The notes: generated from the sequence alone by a model not told the origin. A DNA stretch of 64,000 bases from Planktothricoides raciborskii GIHE-MW2 (GCF_040564635.1 NZ_CP159837.1:291801-355800), one strand, 5' to 3'. Shown: positions 24,864 to 44,809, counted from the first letter of the stretch. Numbers and translations are program-made.

Positions 24864-26021
24864 ATGGAATCAAACACCGTAGTTGATCAACCTCTGATAG
24901 CAAAATCCAGGCGTGAGGAAATTTGCCATATTCTTGGGACATCCTTAGACCCAGAACAATGGAAAGATTGGCGCTGGCAAATGCGTCACCGGCTGACTAA
25001 ATTAGAACATTTTCAGCAGTTGCTAAAGCTCACTCCATCAGAGGAACGAGGGCTAGAAAAAGCGCGGGATAAGTTTGCGGTGGCCGTAACGCCGCATTTT
25101 GCCGAGTTAATTGACCCTGATAATCCCCTTTGCCCAATTCGCTTGCAGGTAGTGCCACGAGAAGAAGAATTAGTCACCAGTTTAGGAGATATGGCCGATC
25201 CCTGCGGTGAGGATAATGATAGCGTGGTGCCTGGACTGGTACACCGTTATCCCGATCGCGTGTTACTGCTGGCTTTGGACTCTTGCGCGGCTTACTGCCG
25301 TTACTGCACGCGATCGCGCTTAGTCAGCCAAGGGGAGATGTATCCCCTGACACGGCGGATCGATGTCATAGTTGCTTACTTGCAAGAACATACTGAAGTC
25401 CGGGATGTGCTGATTTCTGGGGGGGATCCGCTGCTGATGTCTGATGAAGTTTTGGACAACTTGCTGGGACAGTTGCGGGCGATCGAACATATTGAATTTG
25501 TGCGGATCGGTTCCCGCGTTCCCAGTTTCTTACCCCAACGGATTACCCCGTCCCTTGTTTCCGTTTTGCGGAAGCATCGCGTGTGGCTTTCCTTGCACTT
25601 TTGTCATCGGAAAGAACTAACCGCTGAAGTCGCCACAGCTTGCGATTTACTGGCTGATGGTGGCATTCCTCTGGGCAGTCAAACGGTTCTGCTGAAAGGG
25701 GTGAATGATTCCGTAGCCGCACTGAAAAATCTGTTTCACGGTCTACTCAAACTGCGTGTACGCCCCTACTACCTCTACCAATGTGACCCGGTTGTGGGCA
25801 CCGCACACCTACGGACGACGGTGCAAACCGGGATTGATTTGATCTCTCAACTGCGGGGTCATACGACGGGGTATGCAGTGCCCACATTCGTGATCGATGC
25901 ACCGGGTGGTGGGGGCAAAGTCCCCATTTTCCCGGAAACCGTAATGGCTTACGAAAACAGCCAAACCATTGTACGGAATTGGGAAGGCCATCTCTACACT
26001 TATATAGATCCAGTGGAGTAA
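24864..26021 (+). CDS. kamA: lysine 2,3-aminomutase family radical-SAM enzyme
   Basis: CAAYCRYCTR (CxxxCxxC) plus KamA family blocks (SGGDPL, PYYLYQCD). Length 385 aa. Confidence 0.85.
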   Translation: MESNTVVDQPLIAKSRREEICHILGTSLDPEQWKDWRWQMRHRLTKLEHFQQLLKLTPSEERGLEKARDKFAVAVTPHFAELIDPDNPLCPIRLQVVPREEELVTSLGDMADPCGEDNDSVVPGLVHRYPDRVLLLALDSCAAYCRYCTRSRLVSQGEMYPLTRRIDVIVAYLQEHTEVRDVLISGGDPLLMSDEVLDNLLGQLRAIEHIEFVRIGSRVPSFLPQRITPSLVSVLRKHRVWLSLHFCHRKELTAEVATACDLLADGGIPLGSQTVLLKGVNDSVAALKNLFHGLLKLRVRPYYLYQCDPVVGTAHLRTTVQTGIDLISQLRGHTTGYAVPTFVIDAPGGGGKVPIFPETVMAYENSQTIVRNWEGHLYTYIDPVE

Positions 26022-26023
26022 CC

Positions 26024-27016
26024 ATGAAGCTTTTGATTGGTTTGTGTTACGACCTGAAGGAAGACTATCTTAAAGCAGGTTTCAGTGCGATCGAGGTGAT
26101 GGAATTTGACGATGAAGAAACGATCATTGGTCTGGAAGATGCTTTAAGCCATTTGGGTCATAATGTTGAACGGATCGGCAATGGCAGAGAACTAGCGCGG
26201 AGGCTAGTTGCAGGCGATCGCTGGGATTTGATTTTCAATCTGGCCGAAGGGGTTTGGGGTCGTTCCCGTGAAGCGCAAGTCCCCGCAGTCTGTGAATTAT
26301 TTAATCAACCTTATACATTCTCGGATCCCCTGACTTGTGCCCTGGCCTTGGATAAGGCTTTGGCCAAGCGGGTAGTGCGCGATCGCGGTTTGCCCACCCC
26401 AGAATTTGAAATAGTGAATACCCCCGAAGAGGCAAGCACATTATCCTTACCCCTGCCCCTGTTCCTCAAACCCTTGGCCGAGGGCAGTTCCAAAGGTGTC
26501 ACCAGCCATTCTTTCATCAACGACCAAGAAGCGTTAGTCCCAGCCTGCGAAGAATTGCTGGCACAATTTCACCAGCCGGTACTCGTAGAAACTTTTCTCC
26601 CCGGCAGGGAAGTCACTGTGGGTATTGTCGGCAATGGCAGCACTGCGGGGGTGCTGGCTGTCATGGAAGTCATCTTTACTGACAAAGCCGACGCGGTAGG
26701 ATATACCGCCCTGAATAAAGGCGAATATCTAGAACGGGTATCTTATCGTCTCGTCACTGATGAAGAACCAGTGGCAGCACAGGCCAACCAACTGGCTTTA
26801 AATGTCTACCATGCGCTGGGTTGCCGGGACACCGCCCGCGTTGATTTGCGCTGTGATGCCAGAGGGGTTTGGCATTTTCTAGAGGTTAATCCATTGCCAG
26901 GGCTAAACCATATCCGTTCAGATTTGCCAATTATGGCGGATCTTGCTGGTCTGTCTTACCCGCAATTGATTGGCAAGATTGTTGACAGTGCATGGCAACG
27001 GTGGCAAGAGCATTAA
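26024..27016 (+). CDS. ATP-grasp ligase of the D-Ala-D-Ala ligase family
   Basis: Ddl-like N-domain and ATP-grasp fold (FLKPLAEGSSKGV, EVTVGIVGNG). The start is set at MKLLIG, 3 nt after the kamA stop; a longer in-frame extension from 25979 is possible. Confidence 0.75.
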   Translation: MKLLIGLCYDLKEDYLKAGFSAIEVMEFDDEETIIGLEDALSHLGHNVERIGNGRELARRLVAGDRWDLIFNLAEGVWGRSREAQVPAVCELFNQPYTFSDPLTCALALDKALAKRVVRDRGLPTPEFEIVNTPEEASTLSLPLPLFLKPLAEGSSKGVTSHSFINDQEALVPACEELLAQFHQPVLVETFLPGREVTVGIVGNGSTAGVLAVMEVIFTDKADAVGYTALNKGEYLERVSYRLVTDEEPVAAQANQLALNVYHALGCRDTARVDLRCDARGVWHFLEVNPLPGLNHIRSDLPIMADLAGLSYPQLIGKIVDSAWQRWQEH

Positions 27017-27508
27017 CCATAAATTTAGTAGCGCGTCTTAGTAGCGCGTCCAGACTAAAATTATGGGTCGTAGTGGCAATTCACGAGTGGCAATTCACGA
27101 ATTGCCACTACACTCACAGAATTGATCAATGCCCCCTAAATAATAGACAATTCTGGCAGAATTCTCGCTCATCTCCCCGAAGATCGGGGGGTTGGGAGGA
27201 TCGATCCAGAATTTTGCCAGAATTGTCTAATAAATCTGTAAAATTTTGTAACGAGTTGCCAATTTGGCAACATAATCTCCTGATTCGAGGGTTTCATAGA
27301 CTGAGAAAGACGTACTTATTTCACAATCCAGGTCAAGGCTTGGTTTTCAGGGCATTAAAAACCGGGCTGTTCATTGAGTTTTGGCTCATCAGGTCAGAAA
27401 AAATGAGCAAAAACCCGGTTTTTCTGACTACGGAAGTCGCAGGGCAGTGCAGCGAACTGTTGCATCATCTCAAGATTGCTATCTATATAGATTGAAACAG
27501 GTGAAATT

Positions 27509-28672
27509 ATGTTAAAATCTCTCCCATATCCCGTGACAAATCCTTCGATTAAACCCCCAAGTCAATCACCGCTCATTCAATCATATAAAACCAATTGGTG
27601 GAGAGATCCACAAAAACAAAAACCCCTAGTTTCATTAATTGTGCCTGGGTACAACGAAGCGGCGATCGTGGAACAAAATCTCACTATTCTCTGCGAGTAT
27701 ATGGAATCTCTCCAGGATACCTATGACTGGGAAATTGTGGTGATTAATGATGGCAGTTTGGATGAGACCGGAGAACTGGCGGAAGCCTTTGCAAGTACCA
27801 GAGAAAATGTGTATGTTTTACATCATATCACCAATTTCGGACTCGGCCAAGCCCTTAAATTTGGCTTTAATTACTGTCATGGGGATTATGTTGTCGTCAT
27901 CGATTTGGATCTGAGTTATGCTCCAGAACATATCGAAAGACTTCTCAGCAAAATGCGAGAAACTCTGGCGAAAATTGTCGTAGCTTCTCCTTATATAGAA
28001 GGAGGAAATATTTCTAATGTTCCTTGGGCTAGGAAAAAATTAAGTATCTGGGCTAACCGATTTTTATCCGCGACTTCTAAGGGAGAATTAGCCACAGTCA
28101 CCGGCATGGTGCGAGCTTATGATGGGCAGTTTTTGCGATCGCTAAATTTGCGTTCCATGAGCATGGATATCAATCCAGAAATTATCTATAAAGCCAGAAT
28201 TTTACGAGCGAGAATTGAAGAGATCCCGGCTCACTTAAACTGGCGAGTGGAGCGCACCGTGAAGAAGCCGAAAAGACGATCTAGCATGAGGATTTGGCGG
28301 CAAATTTGGTCGGTTTTATTCTCTGGATTTATTTCTCGACCTGTGATATTTTTCTTAATTCCAGGCTTATTCTTGTTTGGCTTTTCTTGTTTAGCGAATG
28401 CTTGGGTACTCATTCATACTTTTACCAATTATCAAAACTTACCGGCTGATTGGTTTCTGGATCGCTTTTCCGATGCGGTCGCTGGGGCTTTTCACCAGGC
28501 GCCGCACACCTTTATTATTGGTGGCATGACTTTGATGTTGGCAATTCAGTTAGTAAGCTTGGGAATTATTTCCATGCAAACCAAAAGCAATTTTGAAGAA
28601 ATGTTTTACCTAGGAACAGCGATTTATAAATTAAATAAGCAAAATAAGCAAGAATTGAATAAAAAACATTAA
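27509..28672 (+). CDS. GT2 polyprenyl-phosphate glycosyltransferase (ArnC/GtrB/DPM1-like) with C-terminal TM helices
   Basis: LVSLIVPGYNEA, VVINDGSLDET and a DLD motif, with two C-terminal hydrophobic segments. Confidence 0.85.
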   Translation: MLKSLPYPVTNPSIKPPSQSPLIQSYKTNWWRDPQKQKPLVSLIVPGYNEAAIVEQNLTILCEYMESLQDTYDWEIVVINDGSLDETGELAEAFASTRENVYVLHHITNFGLGQALKFGFNYCHGDYVVVIDLDLSYAPEHIERLLSKMRETLAKIVVASPYIEGGNISNVPWARKKLSIWANRFLSATSKGELATVTGMVRAYDGQFLRSLNLRSMSMDINPEIIYKARILRARIEEIPAHLNWRVERTVKKPKRRSSMRIWRQIWSVLFSGFISRPVIFFLIPGLFLFGFSCLANAWVLIHTFTNYQNLPADWFLDRFSDAVAGAFHQAPHTFIIGGMTLMLAIQLVSLGIISMQTKSNFEEMFYLGTAIYKLNKQNKQELNKKH

Positions 28673-33689: not shown

Positions 33690-33719
33690 CCTTGAAAACC
33701 ACCACAAGGAGGTGAATAT

Positions 33720-34388
33720 ATGAACCAGCTATCTTCCATAAAACTTTTACCACCAGAGACCTTGTTAAAAACTGGTGCCGTCGATCATGCTGATTGGAAC
33801 TATCGACCTATTTTAGGCTGGATTCAACGTCAAAGATTTAATCTGATTATATCTTTGTTGGCCAAAGAAAGGGTCAATCGACTTTTAGAAGTCGGTTATG
33901 GCAGTGGTGTCTTTATGCCTGAATTAAGCGATCGCTGTCGGGAACTGTACGGAATTGATATTCACCAAAAACAAGCATCAGTGAATAAAGTTTTGGCCGA
34001 ATTTAATATTTCAGCAAAACTTTATTCGGGTAGTGCCACATTACTCCCATTTAAAAATAATTTTTTTGACTGTTTAGTGGCCGTTAGCAGTCTTGAATTT
34101 ATTGATAATTTAGATGCAGCTTCTCAGGAAATGCAGCGAGTTCTCAAGCCGGGAGGTTCTCTAGTTGTTGTGACTCCAGGTGCTTCAAAAATTGTGGATA
34201 TCGGATTAAAACTTCTTACGGGAAAAAGTGCGAAAAATGACTATGGCGATCGCCGTCAATCATTAATTCCTACTTTGCTGAAATATTTTACCATTCAACA
34301 AAAAACTACCGTACCTAGATTTGACAGTGGTCTGTTCTGTCTTTACACTGGCTTAAAACTTTGCCCTCGTCTTAAGAAGAAAATTTAA
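33720..34388 (+). CDS. class I SAM-dependent methyltransferase
   Basis: Motif I LEVGYGSGVF and a post-I acidic residue. Length 222 aa. Confidence 0.75.
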   Translation: MNQLSSIKLLPPETLLKTGAVDHADWNYRPILGWIQRQRFNLIISLLAKERVNRLLEVGYGSGVFMPELSDRCRELYGIDIHQKQASVNKVLAEFNISAKLYSGSATLLPFKNNFFDCLVAVSSLEFIDNLDAASQEMQRVLKPGGSLVVVTPGASKIVDIGLKLLTGKSAKNDYGDRRQSLIPTLLKYFTIQQKTTVPRFDSGLFCLYTGLKLCPRLKKKI

Positions 34389-34470
34389 CCGATCGCTCCC
34401 GACTAAGATCAATCACAATCCCTGAAAAATTAACAATTTTATCCTTAGCTAAAAAAATCGGTAGTTTTAT

Positions 34471-36141
34471 ATGAAAAACACGATAAAAATCAGATTAACG
34501 ACTAATGAAAATTGGCAATTTTTGCCTAATTCATTTAAGTTTTTATTAGTTGTAGTTTTAGCGATCGGCATTTTTTTTAGGTTTGCTAACCTGGAGCAAA
34601 AAATTTACTGGGGCGATGAAGCTTTTACTTCTCTGTGGATTTCTGGTCATACATCAACGGAGTTAATGGCCAGTCTTTTTACCGGGGAAATTATTCAAGT
34701 TGAAGACTTCCAAAAATATCAGGGTATTTTTCCGGGAAATAACGTCATTGATACCGTGAATGCTCTAGCAAAAGATACTCCTTTGATGCCACCACTGTAC
34801 TTTGCCCTGGTGCGCTGTTGGGTGGGAGTTTTTGGTGACTCGATCGCCGCTATAAGAGCGCTTTCTGCTGTGATTAGTTTATTCGTATTTCCAGCGATCT
34901 ATTGGCTATGTTGGGAATTGTTTAATTCATCATTAGTCGGATGGATTGTGATCGCCCTTACCGCTGTATGTCCTTATCAAGTTTTATACGCCCAAGAAGC
35001 GAGACCATATATCTTATGGGCAGTGACAATTTTACTTTCTAGTGCCTGTTTACTCCGAGCCATCAGGATTAATAAACCGCTCAATTGGGGCATATATGCG
35101 ATCGCTTTGACTGCCAGTCTATACACGCATCTATTTTCTGTATTTGTGGCCGTCGGGCAGGGAATTTATCTTCTCATAATTCACCGGTTTCGCTTGAATA
35201 AAATATCGATCAACTATTTGCTATCTTCTTTGGCAGCAGTCCTCTTATTTTTCCCTTGGTTTTTATGCATCATAAAATTTCAACAGTATTATCCAGATAG
35301 TTCTGGTGCTTCTATTTTTACTTTATCCAAGCGCTTAATCGGTTTGTTTACTCGATGCTTTATCGATTTCGGATCGGATTATTCAGACTCAGTTATAACA
35401 CTTATTATAATGACGATAATGAGCAGTATTATTATTATACTAATTGGTTATAGCTTTTGGTTTTTAATTTTTCATAATCCTGTGAAAATATGGGGTTTTG
35501 TGCTTCTGTCGAGTCTGCCAATCCTGCCTCTAGCCGTTTTGAGGGATTTAATCAAAGTATCTCAAGTGCTTCTAACCAGTCCAAGATATTTGTTTCCGGT
35601 TATTTTATATGTACAAATATCTGTGGCTTATTTGATATATATTTGGCTTCAAGGCAATCAAACAAATCATAAAAAATACCGAATTGTTTTCGTATCATTA
35701 ATTGCATCAGGTATATTATCTTCTGCCGTTAGCTTGCCAGCCGAAACTTGGTGGAATAAGCCAATCCCAATTCAATATCCTCGAATTGTCGAGAAGATAA
35801 ATCAATCTCAAAATGCCCTCATTATTAGTGATAGTTACTTATGGGCGATGTGGAATTTAATTTACTATCCTAACTTGGATACTTCAAATCTACAGTTTCA
35901 ATTGTTTACCCCCGAAACCCTAGAAATGTTTGACTTTGCTCAAAACATTAACATGAAATCAAGAGTTACTGGGAAGAATACAGCCAGGGACGATGAAAAT
36001 CAAAAAATATTTTTATTCTGGCCATCTAAGGAGTTGATTAATAAATTAAAAAATACTCATAATTGGGCTGTTGAATCTGTAAAAAATGTAAATTTTTTAT
36101 GGAATGTTACATCTCTAAGCCAGAAAAATAATATATCCTAA
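34471..36141 (+). CDS. GT-C fold (ArnT/PMT, GT39/83-like) polytopic membrane glycosyltransferase, paralog 1
   Basis: About 11 TM helices with a first-loop acidic motif (WGDEAF) typical of lipid-linked-donor GT-C enzymes. The 5' ~620 bp are near-identical to the next gene. Confidence 0.7.
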   Translation: MKNTIKIRLTTNENWQFLPNSFKFLLVVVLAIGIFFRFANLEQKIYWGDEAFTSLWISGHTSTELMASLFTGEIIQVEDFQKYQGIFPGNNVIDTVNALAKDTPLMPPLYFALVRCWVGVFGDSIAAIRALSAVISLFVFPAIYWLCWELFNSSLVGWIVIALTAVCPYQVLYAQEARPYILWAVTILLSSACLLRAIRINKPLNWGIYAIALTASLYTHLFSVFVAVGQGIYLLIIHRFRLNKISINYLLSSLAAVLLFFPWFLCIIKFQQYYPDSSGASIFTLSKRLIGLFTRCFIDFGSDYSDSVITLIIMTIMSSIIIILIGYSFWFLIFHNPVKIWGFVLLSSLPILPLAVLRDLIKVSQVLLTSPRYLFPVILYVQISVAYLIYIWLQGNQTNHKKYRIVFVSLIASGILSSAVSLPAETWWNKPIPIQYPRIVEKINQSQNALIISDSYLWAMWNLIYYPNLDTSNLQFQLFTPETLEMFDFAQNINMKSRVTGKNTARDDENQKIFLFWPSKELINKLKNTHNWAVESVKNVNFLWNVTSLSQKNNIS

Positions 36142-36325
36142 AGTGAATCAAAAATATTGTCTTACTTTACCCCTGTCTGAAGTATGGGTGAGATTTATAT
36201 CCTAATAAACGGATATATTTTCTAGATACATTCGTCATAAAAAATCAAGGCAATTTTCAACACAATAAACAAAAAATGCGATTTTTATAAATAAAATTTG
36301 GTCTGATTTTAGACCGAGGATAACT

Positions 36326-37945
36326 ATGAAAACAATGAATATTTTTTTAAATAATCATTGCCAAATTAACCCTAAATGGCTAAGATTTATCATTATCTCC
36401 GCTTTAGCAATCGGCATTTTTTTTAGATTTGCTAACCTGGAGCAAAAAATTTATTGGGGCGATGAAGCTTTTACTTCTCTGTGGATTTCTGGTCATACAT
36501 CAACGGAGTTAATGGCCAGTCTTTTTACCGGGGAAATTATTCAAGTTGAAGACTTCCAAAAATATCAGGGTATTTTTCCGGGAAATAACGTCATTGATAC
36601 CGTGAATGCTCTAGCAAAAGATACTCCTTTGATGCCACCACTGTACTTTGCCCTGGTGCGCTGTTGGGTGGGAGTTTTTGGTGACTCGATCGCCGCTATA
36701 AGAGCGCTTTCTGCTGTGATTAGTTTATTCGTATTTCCAGCGATCTATTGGCTATGTTGGGAATTGTTTAATTCATCATTAGTCGGATGGATTGCGATCG
36801 CCCTTACCGCTGTATGTCCTTATCAAGTTTTATACGCCCAAGAAGCGAGACCATATATCTTATGGGCAGTGACAATTTTACTTTCTAGTGCCTGTTTACT
36901 CCGAGCCATCAGGATTAATAAACCGCTCAATTGGGGCATATATGCGATCGCTTTGACTGCCAGTCTATACACACATCTATTTTCTGTATTTGTGGCCGTC
37001 GGGCATGGAATTTATCTTCTGATCTTAGAACGGTTTCGACTGAGTAAAATCTTGATGGCTTATTTGATAGCATCTGTTGGGGGGATGTTGGCGTTTTCTC
37101 CCTGGATTTTATTGATCCTAAAATTTCAAGAGTATTATCGAGAGCAACCCGGGGCTTCTATCTTTGTTATAGCCAAGCGCTTAATCGGGATTCTGCCTAG
37201 AATTATTATCGATTTCGGCTCTGGCTATTCAGACTCGGTTCTGAAAATTTCTGTGATGCTGATCTTAAATTCCCTCGTCTTGGCATTTATCTGCTATGCT
37301 TTTTGGGTGACTATTTGTAAAAATCCTCTAAAAATTTCCGCCTTTTTGGTAATTTTTACCTGGTTTATCTTACTGGTGACAGTGTTCAGAGATTTAAATT
37401 CAACTTCTGGAGTTCTACTAACCAACAAAAGATATTTGTTTCCGGTTGTTATGGGTATAGAAATATCCATAGCGGATTTTTTATCCTACCAACTAAGTCA
37501 GAAAAAAATCCCTCAAAGGCTCTGTCATATTATTTTATTAGGATTGATTTCATCAGGAATTTTATCTGGGGCGATTAGTCTGCCGTCAAAAACTTGGTGG
37601 AATAAGGAGGTTGGCAATGACTATACTGAAATTGTGGAGCAAATAAATCAATATCAAAATCCAGTTGTAATCAGCGACACGAAATTGTGGGTAATCTGGA
37701 ATTTAATTTACTATCATAAATTGGACAAATCAAAGTTAAAATTGCAGTTGTTTACTCCCAAAACTCTTCATATGTTTAACCCTGAAAAAACTGACGCAAA
37801 TATTTCTGATACCAGCACCGTAGACTATGGGAATAGCGATTTACTTTTATTTTATCCCTCTCCAGGATTAATTGCTAAATTTGAAGCCTCTAGTGATGGA
37901 AAATTGGCATCTGTAAATAAGTTAAGATTATGGTCACTTAAATAA
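36326..37945 (+). CDS. GT-C fold (ArnT/PMT-like) membrane glycosyltransferase, paralog 2
   Basis: Same architecture as paralog 1. The N-terminal ~205 aa are about 99% identical to paralog 1 and the C-terminal half has diverged. Confidence 0.7.
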   Translation: MKTMNIFLNNHCQINPKWLRFIIISALAIGIFFRFANLEQKIYWGDEAFTSLWISGHTSTELMASLFTGEIIQVEDFQKYQGIFPGNNVIDTVNALAKDTPLMPPLYFALVRCWVGVFGDSIAAIRALSAVISLFVFPAIYWLCWELFNSSLVGWIAIALTAVCPYQVLYAQEARPYILWAVTILLSSACLLRAIRINKPLNWGIYAIALTASLYTHLFSVFVAVGHGIYLLILERFRLSKILMAYLIASVGGMLAFSPWILLILKFQEYYREQPGASIFVIAKRLIGILPRIIIDFGSGYSDSVLKISVMLILNSLVLAFICYAFWVTICKNPLKISAFLVIFTWFILLVTVFRDLNSTSGVLLTNKRYLFPVVMGIEISIADFLSYQLSQKKIPQRLCHIILLGLISSGILSGAISLPSKTWWNKEVGNDYTEIVEQINQYQNPVVISDTKLWVIWNLIYYHKLDKSKLKLQLFTPKTLHMFNPEKTDANISDTSTVDYGNSDLLLFYPSPGLIAKFEASSDGKLASVNKLRLWSLK

Positions 37946-38186: not shown

Positions 38187-38522
38187 ATGAGTAATCAACC
38201 CTTGACCACATTGGAGAAATCTACTATAACTTCGGAAATTGTCTCCCTAATTTTGGCCAATGTTCGGGACATTGCCGAGGAACAAGATATAGAAATTTCT
38301 GATAATTTAGACGAAAATACTCCGCTGTTTGGTAAGCACGGCTTATTTGATTCCTTGGGACTGGTCTCCCTGGTGGTCGCGGTGGAAGAAGCGATCGCCG
38401 ATAAATATGGAGTTACTGTGAGTCTCGCGGATGAAAAAGCCATGTCCCAAAAGCACAGCCCCTATCGTAATATCAGTTCTCTAGCTGAATATGCCAGTAG
38501 TTTAATTCCTACGGAAACGTAA
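38187..38522 (+). CDS. acyl carrier protein-like (phosphopantetheine attachment DSL motif)
   Basis: GLFDSLGLVSLVVAVEEA in an acidic 111-aa protein. Confidence 0.65.
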   Translation: MSNQPLTTLEKSTITSEIVSLILANVRDIAEEQDIEISDNLDENTPLFGKHGLFDSLGLVSLVVAVEEAIADKYGVTVSLADEKAMSQKHSPYRNISSLAEYASSLIPTET

Positions 38523-39288: not shown

Positions 39289-39789
39289 ATGAGTAAAATC
39301 ATTTTTTCCTCGGTGCTGAATAGTGATTATTATGATGATTTAGAAAAGCTGATGTTTTTCAACCCCCAACAAGAAAAAGTCAGAAATGAGGTAATTTCAG
39401 CGGTAGAACGCTATGGTCAACCGAAAATTTACCGGGATGGCGATCGCCTGAGAATTGGGGTGGGTTCTTTCTCAATGGTGCAAGCATTATTTGCCCTGAA
39501 TGGTCAAAAAGCCGATCGGCAATTGCTGGGGATGATTGCTTATATGCGCGAAAATCCTGACAATATGGCGATTTTGCATATCGTGGTGCGAGAAGACTAT
39601 TCTGCGGTGGGAATTCATGGTAATGAAATGTTACTAATGCACTTAATCGATCGCGTCAGGGAAATTGCCGCTAAAATTAAAGGCATAAGTTGCGTAACCC
39701 TTGCCTATAAATCAGAAAAAATTACCAAAATTCCGGTCAAACACCGAATGGCTGAATCAGGAATTACGCATGAGGTCGGTAGGGTGTGA
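39289..39789 (+). CDS. hypothetical protein (possible acyl-CoA N-acyltransferase-like fold)
   Basis: 166-aa ORF in operon context. I recognise no strong motif. Confidence 0.45.
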   Translation: MSKIIFSSVLNSDYYDDLEKLMFFNPQQEKVRNEVISAVERYGQPKIYRDGDRLRIGVGSFSMVQALFALNGQKADRQLLGMIAYMRENPDNMAILHIVVREDYSAVGIHGNEMLLMHLIDRVREIAAKIKGISCVTLAYKSEKITKIPVKHRMAESGITHEVGRV

Positions 39790-41362: not shown

Positions 41363-41984
41363 ACCAATTGTCAGCGATCGCTATACCCCAGTGGAATATC
41401 ACCAGTTTTCCCAGCCCAAAAATCTCCGTATAGCGATGAAAATTGCCGGGATACTTTCTTGGCCATTAGTATTACCTTTAGCCTGGTTATCTCGAAAATC
41501 GGATTTTATCTTTCGCACGGTTTCTGAATTATTAGCAATTGTCCCTTATTTATTCGGGGTAATTATCCGATATGAGTTCTACCGCTGGACTTTAACCTGG
41601 TGTGGGAAAAATGTGGCGATCGGCTTTGGCACAATATTGACTTATCGCAATATTAAAATCGGCAGCAATGTCAATATTGGCAACCATATTACGATTCATT
41701 ATTGCGATATTGGGTCTTATGTTTTGATTGCCGACGGTTGCCAACTTTTGAGTGGTTCCCGCTATCACAATTTCGATCGCACCGACATTCCCATCGCCTT
41801 ACAAGGTGGCCAACTACGGCGAATTCAAATTGGCGATGACTGCTGGATCGGGGCCAATGCAGTGGTGATGAACGATATCGGTCAAGGGAGTGTGGTTGGG
41901 GCGGGGGCGGTTGTCACCAAGGCCGTAGAACCTTATACCGTTGTAGCGGGAAATCCGGCAAAACCAATCAGGAGTCGTTTATGA
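41349..41984 (+). CDS. membrane-anchored hexapeptide-repeat acyltransferase (WcaF-like)
   Basis: N-terminal TM segments followed by left-handed-helix hexads (IGSNVNIGNHITI ... IGANAVVM ... VVGAGAVV). Confidence 0.75.
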   Translation: MKLVEPIVSDRYTPVEYHQFSQPKNLRIAMKIAGILSWPLVLPLAWLSRKSDFIFRTVSELLAIVPYLFGVIIRYEFYRWTLTWCGKNVAIGFGTILTYRNIKIGSNVNIGNHITIHYCDIGSYVLIADGCQLLSGSRYHNFDRTDIPIALQGGQLRRIQIGDDCWIGANAVVMNDIGQGSVVGAGAVVTKAVEPYTVVAGNPAKPIRSRL

Positions 41985-42994
41985 ATCCCATGAATCAAAT
42001 CCAAGCCTCAACCGAGGGTAGGGTGGGCAAAATTTTGCCCACCCTACGGATAGCGATCGCCTGTATTCTCAGCACGATCCTCGGCTGTGCTTCCAAAGCC
42101 AACATTTCCCCTCCCTTTGAAGCGGGGGCAAAGGGGTATTCCCCAACCCCGAAATCGACTAACGACTTTCCTGACTATTCTCGTACCCCGGTGCTATTTG
42201 TCCACGGTTCCGGCTTAAGTTCAAGCACATGGCAGCCCATGATCAAACATCTGCAAGAAATTGGTTATCCATCGGCATATCTTTACGCCGTGGAGATCCA
42301 GCCCAATGATGGGGCAAACGATCGCGCCGCCGAAACCTTCATTGCCCCTGCGGTGGAGTCGATGTTGGCCAAAGCCCAGGCAGCCGCCAGAGATGCCGCC
42401 AAACAAAAATCTAACGTCCCAAAAAATATCGAACCGATACCCGTGAAGGTGGATATCGTAGCGCACAGTATGGGGGCGGTAAGCAGTCGCTGGTACATCG
42501 CCAAACTGCATCCAGAACGGGTACGCACTTGGATTTCCCTTGCCGGGGCTAATCATGGCACCAATGCCCTCTGCGGTTATTCCGGAGCAGGGAATCAACA
42601 AATGTGTCCAGCCTTTGCCACTTCTGCGGAGGACAGTCCCTTGCAGGTGGCACTCAATGGCACCCCCAGCGCCCCGATTGATGAAACTCCCTTCGGACTG
42701 GGAGTTGATTCCCCAGAAGTCAAAACCATTCCCCCAGACACAGACCGAGAGATTTTATATCTCTCCGTGCGAATTGAACCCGATGGTTGGATTAAACCAG
42801 AAAATAGTGCCGTAATTGATGGGGCTGGAGGACTGCCCATCCCCATCCCTGCGGGAGTCCCGGTGCAAGAAACCAGTCCCGGCAACTACTTATTTCAAGG
42901 TCGCGTCGGCCACGATCCCCTGCCCCAAGACCCGGATCTAATTCGTCTGGTAGCCAGTATGCTTAGTGTCCGCGACGGACAGGAGAGGCGTTAA
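41981..42994 (+). CDS. lipoprotein lipase/esterase (alpha/beta hydrolase, Lipase_2-like)
   Basis: Lipobox ILGCAS, nucleophile elbow AHSMGA, and PVLFVHGSG. A 30-bp perfect palindrome lies in the signal-peptide coding region. Confidence 0.7.
   Translation: MNPMNQIQASTEGRVGKILPTLRIAIACILSTILGCASKANISPPFEAGAKGYSPTPKSTNDFPDYSRTPVLFVHGSGLSSSTWQPMIKHLQEIGYPSAYLYAVEIQPNDGANDRAAETFIAPAVESMLAKAQAAARDAAKQKSNVPKNIEPIPVKVDIVAHSMGAVSSRWYIAKLHPERVRTWISLAGANHGTNALCGYSGAGNQQMCPAFATSAEDSPLQVALNGTPSAPIDETPFGLGVDSPEVKTIPPDTDREILYLSVRIEPDGWIKPENSAVIDGAGGLPIPIPAGVPVQETSPGNYLFQGRVGHDPLPQDPDLIRLVASMLSVRDGQERR
42018..42047. repeat. 30-bp perfect palindrome gtagggtgggcaaaattttgcccaccctac, in frame within a CDS (identical copy at 47762-47791)
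   Basis: Exact self-complementarity, and exact identity to the intergenic copy at 47762-47791. Confidence 0.9.
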
Positions 42995-43713
42995 TGAGTA
43001 TCTCTTACCAACTTGTTCCCTTTGATCGAAACACCCCTGCACCCGTGCAAGTTCTCGCTCGACTGCATCAAGAGCTAATCCCCAGTAGCCCAATTGTCTT
43101 ATTGGGTAAGGGATTTATGGAGCAATTTTACTATCATATATTGCCCCGCGAGGGTTTAATTTGTGGTGCCGTGGCCTATATCGACGGTCAACCCGCCGGA
43201 TTTATCGTCGCCACACCAGACTCAGCCCGGTTTATGAGAATTGGCCTCCGACGCCATTGGTGGCGATTAATCTGGATCATTGGCACTTCGGTGCTGCGGG
43301 AACCTAAGCGACTGGCGGCGATTTGGGAAGCATGGCAAATTATGAGGAGTAGGGGTCAATGGCCATTGACCCCTACTGGTGAAGCAGAAGCACTGGAGGG
43401 AGAACTGCTTTCTTTTGGGGTACTGCCTGCTTACCGAAATCCAAAATTTATTAGACAATCTGGTTTACAAATTTCCCAGGATCTTTTCAACCGGGCTGTA
43501 AGCCAGATTCAAGAGGCAGGAATTTGCCAAATTCGAGCGATCGTTGACGCGGACAATACTCCCGCCAAACTGTTTTATCACGGATTGGGATGGCATCTCG
43601 ATCGCACCCAAGTCCCTGGTTGGCGACTTCCCAGTGTGGATTTTGTCTGGCGAAACACGGCAAAAGCAGATCCGGCGCAACCAAGCTTTCAAGCTTTAAA
43701 CAAGGGGAACTGA
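42994..43713 (+). CDS. GNAT-like acyltransferase-fold protein (carries an in-frame palindromic insertion)
   Basis: FGVLPAYRNPKF ... AIVDADNTPAKLFYHGLGW resembles the GNAT core. The palindrome at 43349-43376 is translated as RGQWPLTP. Confidence 0.5.
   Translation: MSISYQLVPFDRNTPAPVQVLARLHQELIPSSPIVLLGKGFMEQFYYHILPREGLICGAVAYIDGQPAGFIVATPDSARFMRIGLRRHWWRLIWIIGTSVLREPKRLAAIWEAWQIMRSRGQWPLTPTGEAEALEGELLSFGVLPAYRNPKFIRQSGLQISQDLFNRAVSQIQEAGICQIRAIVDADNTPAKLFYHGLGWHLDRTQVPGWRLPSVDFVWRNTAKADPAQPSFQALNKGN
43349..43376. repeat. 28-bp perfect palindrome gtaggggtcaatggccattgacccctac, in frame within a CDS (near-identical copy at 48743-48770)
   Basis: Exact self-complementarity. The copy in the intergenic region at 48.7 kb is preceded by a heptamer array. 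Confidence 0.9.
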
Positions 43714-43714
43714 T

Positions 43715-44809
43715 ATGAAAGAAAAACAAGATTCCCTGAAAAAAAGAGAGACTTCCGTTCGTCGCTGGCTATACGGACTATTGGGTCTAATCATCACCAT
43801 TGTCTTTTTAGTCTGGGCATTACGGGGTGTATCCCCAGGGGTGGTATGGCAAGCGGTGCAACAATCCCAAGGAGAATGGGTGCTGCTGGGGTTAATCACC
43901 TTTATCAGTTCCTTTTCCATTCGGGCAAGACGTTGGGGCACCTTGCTGGGGGCACACCACGACCCAGGGTCCTTTAAAATCCGTCAATCTGCGGTGTTCA
44001 TTGGCTTTGCCGGTAATGCTATTCTCCCAGCCCATGCGGGAGAGGTGATTCGTTCTTTAATTCTGCACCGATTTGGCGGCGTTCCTTTGGGGGCAGCCCT
44101 GGGAAGCATCTTCGCCGAACGGTTGCTGGATGCGGTGGTCGCCTTTCTCTTATTATTAATTGCCCTGTTGTCCGTGACCCAAGCTAGTCACCTTGGGGCC
44201 GTACAACCGGGAAATTTCTCCTCTTTGCCCGTTGGCTGGATCGCGCTGGTGTTAGCGATCGCCTGTGTAATGTTCTTATCCGCCGCTAGATGGCCTTTGG
44301 CGATCGCGGAATTCGTTGGCAAAGTTAGCCGAGTCTTCGGTCTGGGTCGCCATGCCCCCCGAATTGAGGCGATCGTCCGCAGTCTACTCAGTGGACTCGA
44401 AGCCCTCCGCTATCCTCAACGGGGCATTATGGCGGTGATGGAGAGTTTCTGTATTTGGGGCATGACCGGCATGACCTACTGGTTCCTGATGTTGGCCTTT
44501 GGCATTAATACCCCCGGCCCAATGGGGGCTTTGTTCGTCCAAGGGGTTGTGGCATTAGCGATCGCCATTCCCTCGTCCCCCGGTTACTTAGGCCCATTTG
44601 AAGCCGCCATCAGATTCGGACTGGGACTCTACGCCATTCCCCCAGATGCGATCGTGGCTTTTGCCATCACCCTGAGAATTCTCATGTTCTTCAGTCTCAC
44701 CGCGATCGGATTTTTCCTCGCCACCCGGTTGGGTCTATCTTGGCATGACTTCATCCAAAGCAAAAACGACCAAAAAGCGGGTGTTTTCACCAAATCTGGA
44801 TCTGGGTGA
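43715..44809 (+). CDS. polytopic membrane protein of the lysylphosphatidylglycerol-synthase-TM / flippase-like (UPF0104) family
   Basis: Eight hydrophobic segments and an N-terminal KKRETSVRRWLYGLLGLIITIVFLVWALRGV typical of this family. Confidence 0.65.
   Translation: MKEKQDSLKKRETSVRRWLYGLLGLIITIVFLVWALRGVSPGVVWQAVQQSQGEWVLLGLITFISSFSIRARRWGTLLGAHHDPGSFKIRQSAVFIGFAGNAILPAHAGEVIRSLILHRFGGVPLGAALGSIFAERLLDAVVAFLLLLIALLSVTQASHLGAVQPGNFSSLPVGWIALVLAIACVMFLSAARWPLAIAEFVGKVSRVFGLGRHAPRIEAIVRSLLSGLEALRYPQRGIMAVMESFCIWGMTGMTYWFLMLAFGINTPGPMGALFVQGVVALAIAIPSSPGYLGPFEAAIRFGLGLYAIPPDAIVAFAITLRILMFFSLTAIGFFLATRLGLSWHDFIQSKNDQKAGVFTKSGSG

Follow-up and report, generated by a model that had tools for sequence, protein, structure and literature searches.

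Introduction

Concerted evolution is recognized where paralogs within one genome resemble each other more closely than they resemble their orthologs, where this extends to synonymous sites and where synteny indicates that the duplication is older (PMC6053082). tufA/tufB, psbA, and psbD behave in this way, and for psbA and psbD the process operates in Oscillatoriales; the same survey lists no glycosyltransferase (PMC6053082). Here we analyze two tandem genes, termed A and B, for predicted glycosyltransferases of the C fold (GT-C) in a stretch of 64,000 nucleotides (nt) from the genome of Planktothricoides raciborskii GIHE-MW2 (GCF_040564635.1, NZ_CP159837.1:291801-355800). This whole stretch is called the window, and its positions are counted from its first letter. 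A and B share with the tuf and psb genes the greater likeness of paralogs than of orthologs and an older, syntenic duplication. Whereas whole tuf and psb genes evolve in concert and their copies encode the same protein (PMC6053082), in A and B only an internal segment of 618 nt toward the 5' end is homogenized, the copies are adjacent and the remainder of the genes is distinct. The cause that we favor, with a probability of about 0.88, is a recurrent ectopic gene conversion that does not reach beyond the conserved GT-C module of these old tandem paralogs. The process itself is well known and the locus is a fresh example of it; our literature search found no report of ectopic gene conversion in GT-C genes.

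Tandem paralogs that diverge as mosaics have been described elsewhere. One study presents gene conversion as affecting the divergence between the mammalian tandem paralogs TLR1 and TLR6 (PMC2077338), and another describes mosaic divergence with gene conversion in the tandem HMA4 paralogs of Arabidopsis halleri (bioRxiv 10.1101/2025.10.29.685298). As portrayed there, both cases are unlike A and B in being eukaryotic and meiotic and in concerning other protein classes.

GT-C_A enzymes consist of a conserved N-terminal module with seven transmembrane (TM) helices and, after it, a variable module that accounts for most acceptor contacts, and their catalytic base lies in the initial helix of the first luminal loop (PMC13503287; for the module architecture see also PMC10154233). 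In three-component systems for periplasmic glycosylation, the cytoplasm is where a polyprenyl-phosphate sugar is synthesized; the sugar is then flipped and passed on by a GT-C enzyme that is specific for the acceptor and determines the destination of the sugar, and several different GT-C arabinofuranosyltransferases use decaprenyl-phosphate-arabinose (PMC11127046). The mycobacterial EmbC/EmbA/EmbB and Aft enzymes, which depend on this donor, are a precedent for paralogous GT-C enzymes with a common donor and different acceptors, although Emb proteins are about twice as long as those of A and B and related to them at the level of the fold only. The embCAB genes are arranged in tandem, RgtA-D of Rhizobium are GT-C enzymes drawing on dodecaprenyl-phosphate-galacturonic acid and a further precedent of this kind, and ArnT is the undecaprenyl-phosphate-4-amino-4-deoxy-L-arabinose (L-Ara4N):lipid A transferase. 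We know of no report of a conversion-homogenized module in Emb/Aft or Rgt paralogs.

Results

Two Tandem GT-C Genes Share a Near-Identical Internal Tract

Genes A and B lie on the same strand, separated by a spacer of 184 nt (Table 1). Their products match Pfam PMT_2 (PF13231, GT-C clan) with 36.1 bits for A and 40.5 bits for B at a gathering score of 26.1. The protein of gene A is identical to XCM37488.1/WP_054465164.1 of Planktothricoides, and that of gene B to XCM37489.1 of P. raciborskii GIHE-MW2.

Table 1. Features of genes A and B, their candidate partners in the cluster, and short patches in Microcoleus (positions of the window, except for the Microcoleus patches, which are given in the respective loci L010, L015, and L027).
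Feature	Position	Strand	Remarks
Gene A, predicted GT-C fold glycosyltransferase, type A, 556 aa	34471..36141	+	ORF; Pfam PMT_2
Diverged 5' head, gene A	34471..34556	+	51% nt, 23% aa vs. gene B head
Homogenized tract, gene A copy	34557..35174	+	codons ~30-234; 6 mismatches/618 nt vs. gene B copy
Asp49-Glu50 of gene A, candidate catalytic acidic pair	34615..34620	+	first periplasmic loop; in gene B D46-E47, 36461-36466
Diverged variable module (TM8 onward) and C-terminal periplasmic domain, gene A (predicted)	35175..36141	+	
Gene B, predicted GT-C fold glycosyltransferase, type B, 539 aa	36326..37945	+	ORF; Pfam PMT_2
Diverged 5' head, gene B	36326..36402	+	51% nt, 23% aa vs. gene A head
Homogenized tract, gene B copy	36403..37020	+	codons ~27-231; 1846-nt offset, frame kept
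Diverged variable module and C-terminal periplasmic domain, gene B (predicted)	37021..37945	+	
GT2 glycosyltransferase, candidate polyprenyl-phosphate sugar synthase	27509..28672	+	Glycos_transf_2 1.5e-30
Flippase-like membrane protein, candidate lipid-linked donor exporter	43715..44809	+	LPG_synthase_TM/TIGR00374
Microcoleus patch, L010	7991-8186/9641-9836		
Microcoleus patch, L015	858-1054/2508-2704		
Microcoleus patch, L027	7951-8111/9601-9761		
aa, amino acids; ORF, open reading frame; GT2, glycosyltransferase family 2.

A repeat search and an ungapped comparison at the fixed offset of 1846 nt delimit the tract. Its two copies differ at 34563, 34581, 34608, 34949, 35127, and 35160 (gene A positions). 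Four of these six are synonymous, and the other two exchange an amino acid (V160A, Q230H). A reading of the same DNA made beforehand, the sequence-only reading, had placed the tract at ~34570-35185 and ~36405-37020, right within ~15 nt, and the "handful" of differing positions that it mentioned amounts to the six in 618 nt counted here; the identical N-terminal core of ~205 residues that it described does have this length, but is identical at 203 of the 205 residues and not at all of them. It was right, too, about the divergence of the 3' halves, and the uniform divergence along the genes that it had named as the case against its view is not what the alignment gives: identity is 99.0% in the tract, 51% in the first 26-29 codons (23% at the amino acid level) and ~61% downstream, over the 3' 60% of the genes (44-47% at the amino acid level).

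The longest run of identity between A and B is 340 nt, whereas runs in 10,000 shuffles of the mismatch positions reach 54 nt at most. Of 143 synonymous sites inside the tract, 4 differ, as opposed to 104 of the 180 that lie outside (Fisher p = 3e-29). According to the Nei-Gojobori method, synonymous (dS) and non-synonymous (dN) divergence between the two genes of the window are 0.028 and 0.004 in the tract, and 1.11 and 0.45 in the 3' part, respectively. A third copy of the tract is not present within the 64-kb window. The tract has a G+C content of 0.42, and the remaining parts of the genes have 0.33 and 0.36. If third codon positions are taken alone, tract and rest have 0.39 and 0.31 in gene A, and 0.37 and 0.37 in gene B. 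GC-biased gene conversion was considered and dropped, as this third-position difference is small in A and absent in B and family members generally show a shift of +0.02 in the same direction, so that amino acid composition accounts for most of the enrichment.

Tract Sites Group by Genome, Flanking Sites by Orthology

In the following comparisons, W stands for the window (GIHE-MW2) and L-numbers for syntenic or related loci from other genomes. Syntenic operons were obtained from the metagenome-assembled genome (MAG) Oscillatoriales S07.Bin090 (L001), a JGI metagenome (L002), ENA metagenomes (L003, L004, L088), the isolates SR001 (L089; GCA_001276715.1) and a FACHB strain (L090), and two further lineages (L085, L087). 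Synteny is full, with A followed by B, in L001, L002, L004, L088, L089, and L090, and A and B are therefore positional orthologs. Since dS of the flanking genes between lineages is low (0.05-0.6, mostly 0.1-0.35), the compared lineages are close relatives. Outside the tract, gene A shares 88% of its amino acid residues with its ortholog in L001 and 76% with that in L002, and gene B 93 and 87%, respectively, whereas A and B share 43-48% with each other.

In the quartet of W_A, W_B, L001_A, and L001_B, 22 informative sites of the tract group by genome and one by orthology, whereas the 3' part has 0 sites grouping by genome and 259 by orthology, and the 5' head 0 and 25. The contrast between the tract and the 3' part is highly significant (Fisher p = 7e-32). 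The corresponding quartet with L002 yields 14:1 (by genome versus by orthology) for the tract and 5:200 for the 3' part, and a third quartet 15:1 in the tract and 214:4 in favor of orthology outside it. Because distinct orthologs of A and of B exist in W, L001, L002, and the FACHB strain, the duplication is much older than these lineages, and because tract sites group by genome, the tract has been homogenized separately in each lineage. Between lineages, dS of the tract (0.16-0.21) is in line with that of neighboring genes (0.08-0.35), which argues for copying and not for constraint as the source of the similarity. Gene conversion had been one of two alternatives in the sequence-only reading; it is borne out by the counts of 22:1 in the tract and 259:0 outside, though as a recurrent process and not as a single event. 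The two inspections that this reading had recommended point the same way, as conversion tracts are found in related genomes (the tract is homogenized by genome in L001 and L002, too) and as synonymous sites along the alignment are homogenized in the tract (0.028) and saturated in the 3' part (1.11).

The other alternative had been a duplication with rapid C-terminal divergence. This would mean that the tandem duplication is recent, that the C-terminal part has changed very fast through positive or relaxed selection and that the N-terminal part has not diverged yet. It could appeal to the facts that A and B are mutually closest in their C-terminal parts (45% amino acid identity versus 25-37% to other types) and that dN/dS of the gene A C-terminal part is high between lineages (0.87 for W versus L001). 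Fast protein evolution, however, cannot yield synonymous sites that are saturated (dS 1.1-1.3), and W, L001, L002, and the FACHB strain have distinct orthologs of A and of B (259:0) while their tracts group by genome. Saturated synonymous sites (3' dS ~1.1) and orthologs for both gene types, present in at least three lineages, lead us to reject a recent duplication, to which we assign hardly any probability.

Similarly, the tract might be fixed by a constraint at the nucleotide level, such as an embedded RNA, an antisense gene, a regulatory element or extreme codon selection, and one island within it (gene A residues ~120-205) is indeed mostly 88-98% identical in nucleotides among four paralog types. 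Yet the tract gains synonymous changes between lineages at a normal rate (dS 0.16-0.21), it contains neither an Rfam match nor an antisense ORF of at least 80 amino acids, and over the equivalent region identity is only 45-70% in the tandem pairs that this family has in Microcoleus, Nostoc, and others, with L068 (uniformly 55-87%) as an exception. We therefore consider such a constraint extremely improbable as the cause. Rfam searches at permissive E-values gave two chance-level eukaryotic matches only, both outside the tract. Promoter-like sites numbered 13, compared to 13.9 expected from shuffled sequences, and terminator-like sites 8 compared to 3.4 expected, the stems of the latter being weak.

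Recurrent ectopic gene conversion thus remains the favored cause. As a separate observation, dN/dS for the C-terminal part of gene A (35175-36141) is ~0.87 versus L001 and 0.42 versus L002, compared to 0.24-0.28 for gene B and ~0.1 for flanking genes. These ratios indicate that the putative variable module of gene A may be under relaxed or diversifying selection.

The Tract Is Found in Independent Assemblies

Two falsely identical segments might also have been made by a collapsed or duplicated repeat or by consensus smoothing. A near-identical repeat of 340-618 nt exceeds the span of short reads, and metagenome assemblers can fuse near-identical paths, so that copies in MAGs are possibly over-homogenized. 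On the other hand, neither ORF is interrupted or shifted in frame, the heads, the spacer and the tails are unique, and the exact A and B proteins are encoded on a contig of 7,215,835 bp of GIHE-MW2. The independent assembly of SR001 contains identical A and B genes with the same six tract differences, which excludes the assembly duplication that the sequence-only reading had itself raised as an objection. Furthermore, L003 and L004, from different samples, agree base for base over the gene A tract copy (window 34300-35300), and wholesale merging is contradicted by the 13, 15, or 47 tract differences encountered in other lineages. An artefact of assembly is, in our judgment, a most implausible origin of the pattern.

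Tract Edges and Recent Exchange Among Strains

The 5' edge of the tract is sharp and identical in W, L001, L002, and L004, with type-specific sites ending at ~34556/34557. The 3' edge is softer, located at ~35160-35175 in W and L001 and ~100 nt farther in L002, where the tract copies are less alike (47 differences, dS 0.22). Depending on the strain or lineage, A and B differ at 5, 6, 7, 13 (FACHB strain), 15 (L001), or 47 (L002) tract positions, which are not the same ones. As counts, positions, and the 3' edge differ between lineages, the conversion events were independent.

Closer relatives reveal exchange on a shorter time scale. At site 34949, A differs from B in GIHE-MW2, SR001, and the FACHB strain, whereas both copies have T in L088 and both have C in L004. 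In the FACHB strain, the gene A tract is identical to that of the window, and the B copy over the equivalent of 34971-35191 is nearest to the A copy of L001 (7 mismatches) and not to B copies (14-17 mismatches). In addition, W differs from the near-identical loci L003/L004 in a divergent patch of ~1 kb (33700-34670), which takes in the methyltransferase gene together with the spacer and gene A's 5' end and whose right end is ~110 nt inside the tract. From its sequence, this patch resembles an allele imported by recombination, with one of its junctions lying in the homogenized segment. Site 34949, the mosaic B copy of the FACHB strain and the 33700-34670 patch together argue that recombination between paralogs and between strains is frequent at this locus.

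For this reason one may ask whether unequal crossing-over, in cycles of deletion and duplication, or the import of alleles from other strains could replace patch conversion within one chromosome. The number of GT-C genes at the locus does vary between two and three, and recombination between strains does occur, as seen in the 33700-34670 patch and in the B segment of the FACHB strain that is nearest to the A copy of another lineage. Unequal crossing-over, however, would leave a single junction and an altered gene number, whereas there are two edges inside each gene here and the heads, the spacer, and both tails remain orthologous; strain imports alone cannot provide both copies of one genome with common derived states. 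Patch conversion fits better than unequal crossing-over because the tract is internal with two edges and heads, spacer and tails are orthologous, and we judge this alternative improbable, if less so than the three discussed above.

Ectopic (interlocus) gene conversion would proceed here as non-reciprocal homologous recombination between direct repeats 1846 nt apart, in which the 618-nt segment of one copy would repeatedly be overwritten by the sequence of the other, and would halt where the copies are too unlike for pairing. The fixed 5' edge at codon ~29 might then mark heads (51%) that are too divergent to pair, and the 3' edge near the end of the seventh helix might be set by decaying similarity; selection probably removes conversions that erase the diverged C-terminal half. 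RecA-type recombination would be needed. The outcome is a mosaic, in which a common, putatively catalytic and donor-side module is joined to two long-separated variable modules and periplasmic domains.

The Tract Appears to Correspond to a Predicted Seven-Helix Module

An AlphaFold2 model of the gene A protein, built on 75 homologs, has a pLDDT (predicted local distance difference test) of 89.4 and a pTM (predicted template modeling score) of 0.90. When compared with the Protein Data Bank (PDB) by Foldseek, its best match is ArnT (5F15, 5EZM; probability 1.0, TM-score 0.51-0.56), followed by PglB/STT3, ALG12/ALG9, DPY19, and Pmt4, all with a probability of 1.0; TM-scores range from 0.43 to 0.56 across the GT-C matches. 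At the sequence level, A and B have no match to solved GT-C/PDB structures, even with a profile of 75 sequences at E <= 10, and since sequence searches gave no match, the link to ArnT comes from the fold search alone. NCBIfam contains no family for A or B at E <= 1e-4. In databases the family is labeled "glycosyltransferase family 39 protein," and the UniRef name of one member starts with "Glycosyltransferase RgtA/B." A and B are GT-C fold enzymes of an uncharacterized cyanobacterial family and not ArnT orthologs. In the model they resemble ArnT (5EZM, 5F15) in having a conserved N-terminal multi-helix module, an acidic residue in the first loop, a variable module, and a periplasmic C-terminal domain, and differ from it in lacking a detectable sequence match or an NCBIfam equivalog.

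DSSP assignment combined with hydropathy places helices of the gene A model at residues 20-38, 109-121, 125-151, 154-165, 180-200, 203-219, and 223-237. The tract spans most of TM1 and the long first periplasmic loop and continues through the seventh hydrophobic helix (223-237). On the basis of the model, the tract thus appears to correspond approximately to the conserved seven-helix module, and the diverged part to the variable module plus the periplasmic C-terminal domain. D49 and E50 are each conserved in 90% or more of the 75 family members. In the model they stand where helix 48-57 begins, just after TM1; within the long first periplasmic loop, this helix is the first.

A Variable GT-C Slot and Other Tandem Pairs

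The set of GT-C genes at this position varies among closely related lineages (dS of flanking genes 0.1-0.4): A and B occur in W, L001, and SR001, A, B, and a type C in L002 and the FACHB strain, and a type D with C in L085 and L087 (loci examined: L002 13825-15342, L090 7001-8668, L085 10001-13456, L087 9337-12705). The slot differs even within one species, as GIHE-MW2 and SR001 have A and B, and the FACHB strain A, B, and C. C-terminal parts of different types share 25-47% of their amino acid residues. By contrast, the island at window ~34830-35085 (gene A residues ~120-205) is 78-98%, mostly 88-98%, identical in nucleotides across the four paralog types, with a dS between types of 0.27-0.5 that rises to at least 1 elsewhere. 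In other genera, tandem pairs are only 50-70% identical over this region, L068 excepted. An older or wider conversion among all four types is a likely interpretation of these sequence data. D and C of L085 and L087 give a weak and mixed signal in the island, with 4 sites grouping by genome and 9 by orthology. Conversion of L002 gene A by type C is only suggested by 7 of 11 sites private to L002_A, which match C (alignment nt 387-443).

It was also considered whether the tract serves as the left arm for a cassette replacement between A+B and D+C. This candidate found no support, as W and L085 already diverge in the 5' part of their first GT-C gene (59-83%), and from sequence comparison the methyltransferase gene upstream, which is nearly identical, would make the likelier arm. 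Between W and L085, this gene (33720-34388) has a dS of 0.05 while neighboring genes have ~0.2, which suggests that it may have been exchanged recently between lineages with different GT-C sets.

Among other cyanobacteria, 19 of 79 loci contain tandem GT-C pairs. Eighteen of these pairs are 45-70% identical along most of their length and that of L068 is uniformly 55-87% identical; a long tract with sharp edges occurs in none of the 19 pairs outside the genus. In three Microcoleus pairs, identity reaches 91-95% in a short patch within the first 20-40 codons, against 45-65% over the remainder of the genes, and these patches (Table 1) may represent much shorter conversion tracts in a distant branch of the family.

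Genes A and B Lie in a Conserved Same-Strand Cluster

Genes A and B are part of a same-strand cluster at ~24.8-45.9 kb of the window. The GT2 protein has two C-terminal membrane helices (hydrophobic segments 266-305 and 333-356), and its NCBIfam scores against PgfS, ArnC, AglJ, and PpgS all fall well short of the cutoffs. The flippase-like protein scores 91.8 bits against TIGR00374 (cutoff 43.2) and has multiple hydrophobic segments; its gene is present in every syntenic locus whose DNA reaches that far. Further genes of the cluster code for a DegT-type aminotransferase, a GFO/IDH oxidoreductase, two hexapeptide acyltransferases, an amine oxidase, a methyltransferase, an acyl carrier protein (ACP)-like protein, a short-chain dehydrogenase/reductase (SDR), an AMP-binding enzyme, a thioesterase- or lipase-like protein, and a polysaccharide deacetylase. 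The cluster is a putative conserved envelope-glycoconjugate operon of P. raciborskii.

Candidates for the three functional classes known from Gtr of Shigella and Salmonella and from ORF15/14/12 of Citrobacter youngae lie together in this cluster, in keeping with the scheme of three-component glycosylation. It differs from these three-component systems in that the flippase candidate is of the LPG_synthase_TM/TIGR00374 type and not GtrA, SMR, or MATE, and in that there are many extra tailoring genes and two to three tandem GT-C genes.

Several other observations concern the same region. Three ORFs have weak or no family assignments, namely 38187-38522 (111 amino acids, sub-threshold PP-binding match, ACP-like), 39289-39789 (166 amino acids), and 42994-43713 (239 amino acids), and their positions are occupied in all syntenic loci whose DNA extends there. 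The G+C content steps up to 0.49-0.55 at 41650-43900, from ~0.40 in the preceding genes; this segment covers the end of the second hexapeptide transferase gene, the lipase/thioesterase-like gene, the 239-amino-acid ORF, which matches no family, and the start of the flippase-like gene. At 24864-27495, genes for a lysine-2,3-aminomutase-like radical SAM protein and a D-Ala-D-Ala-ligase-like ATP-grasp protein and an ORF of 167 amino acids (G+C ~0.51) are encountered. This trio is present in W and L003, and L002 has the first two genes, the third not being called. L001, L085, and L087 lack the trio, and a HEAT-repeat gene is followed directly by the GT2 gene there.

Discussion

Several points weigh against recurrent conversion of a conserved module as we describe it. 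In the loci assembled from short-read MAGs (L001, L002), the tract copies could have been slightly over-smoothed by the assembler, although such smoothing cannot create the pattern and does not apply to the identical results from SR001 and the 7.2-Mb contig. The seven helices were counted by DSSP and hydropathy on a predicted model; as the helix count of the whole protein, uncertain by one, is not odd, as a periplasmic C-terminus would need, the module boundary is approximate. Finally, a dN/dS of ~0.4-0.9 for the C-terminal part of gene A may reflect relaxed constraint on A.

The sequence-only reading had proposed that A and B take the same lipid-linked donor and differ in their acceptors. The GT-C module architecture, the operon context, and the precedents with multiple GT-C enzymes make this idea reasonable, and, arguing by analogy, we see its chances as evenly balanced. 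The polyprenyl-phosphate sugar would be made by the GT2 enzyme, exported by the flippase-like protein and used by both A and B, which would transfer the sugar to two different acceptor sites.

The locus presents a natural dissection of a GT-C enzyme, in which one module is interchangeable and the other is kept apart over a synonymous divergence of more than 1. It provides independent support for the view that the N-terminal seven-helix module represents the common chemistry and the variable module the reading of the acceptor, and it marks cut points for chimeras at gene A residues ~29-30 and 234-235. For annotation it carries a warning, as the whole-gene identity of 65% between the A and B proteins masks two very different histories, and the near-identical direct repeat of 618 nt is a likely point of breakage or smoothing in short-read assemblies.

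For the organism, the analysis flags a strain-variable envelope-glycosylation operon in a bloom-forming cyanobacterium. A wider interpretation, which we regard as possible though rather unlikely, is that the locus is a modular diversification system for a cell-surface glycoconjugate, with the conserved module, above all its residues ~120-205, being exchanged among all types and between lineages. If this were true, the homogenized module would be a recombination substrate for the gain, loss, and reshuffling of acceptor-specific modules, and the surface glycan would vary between strains, for example under pressure from phages or grazers.

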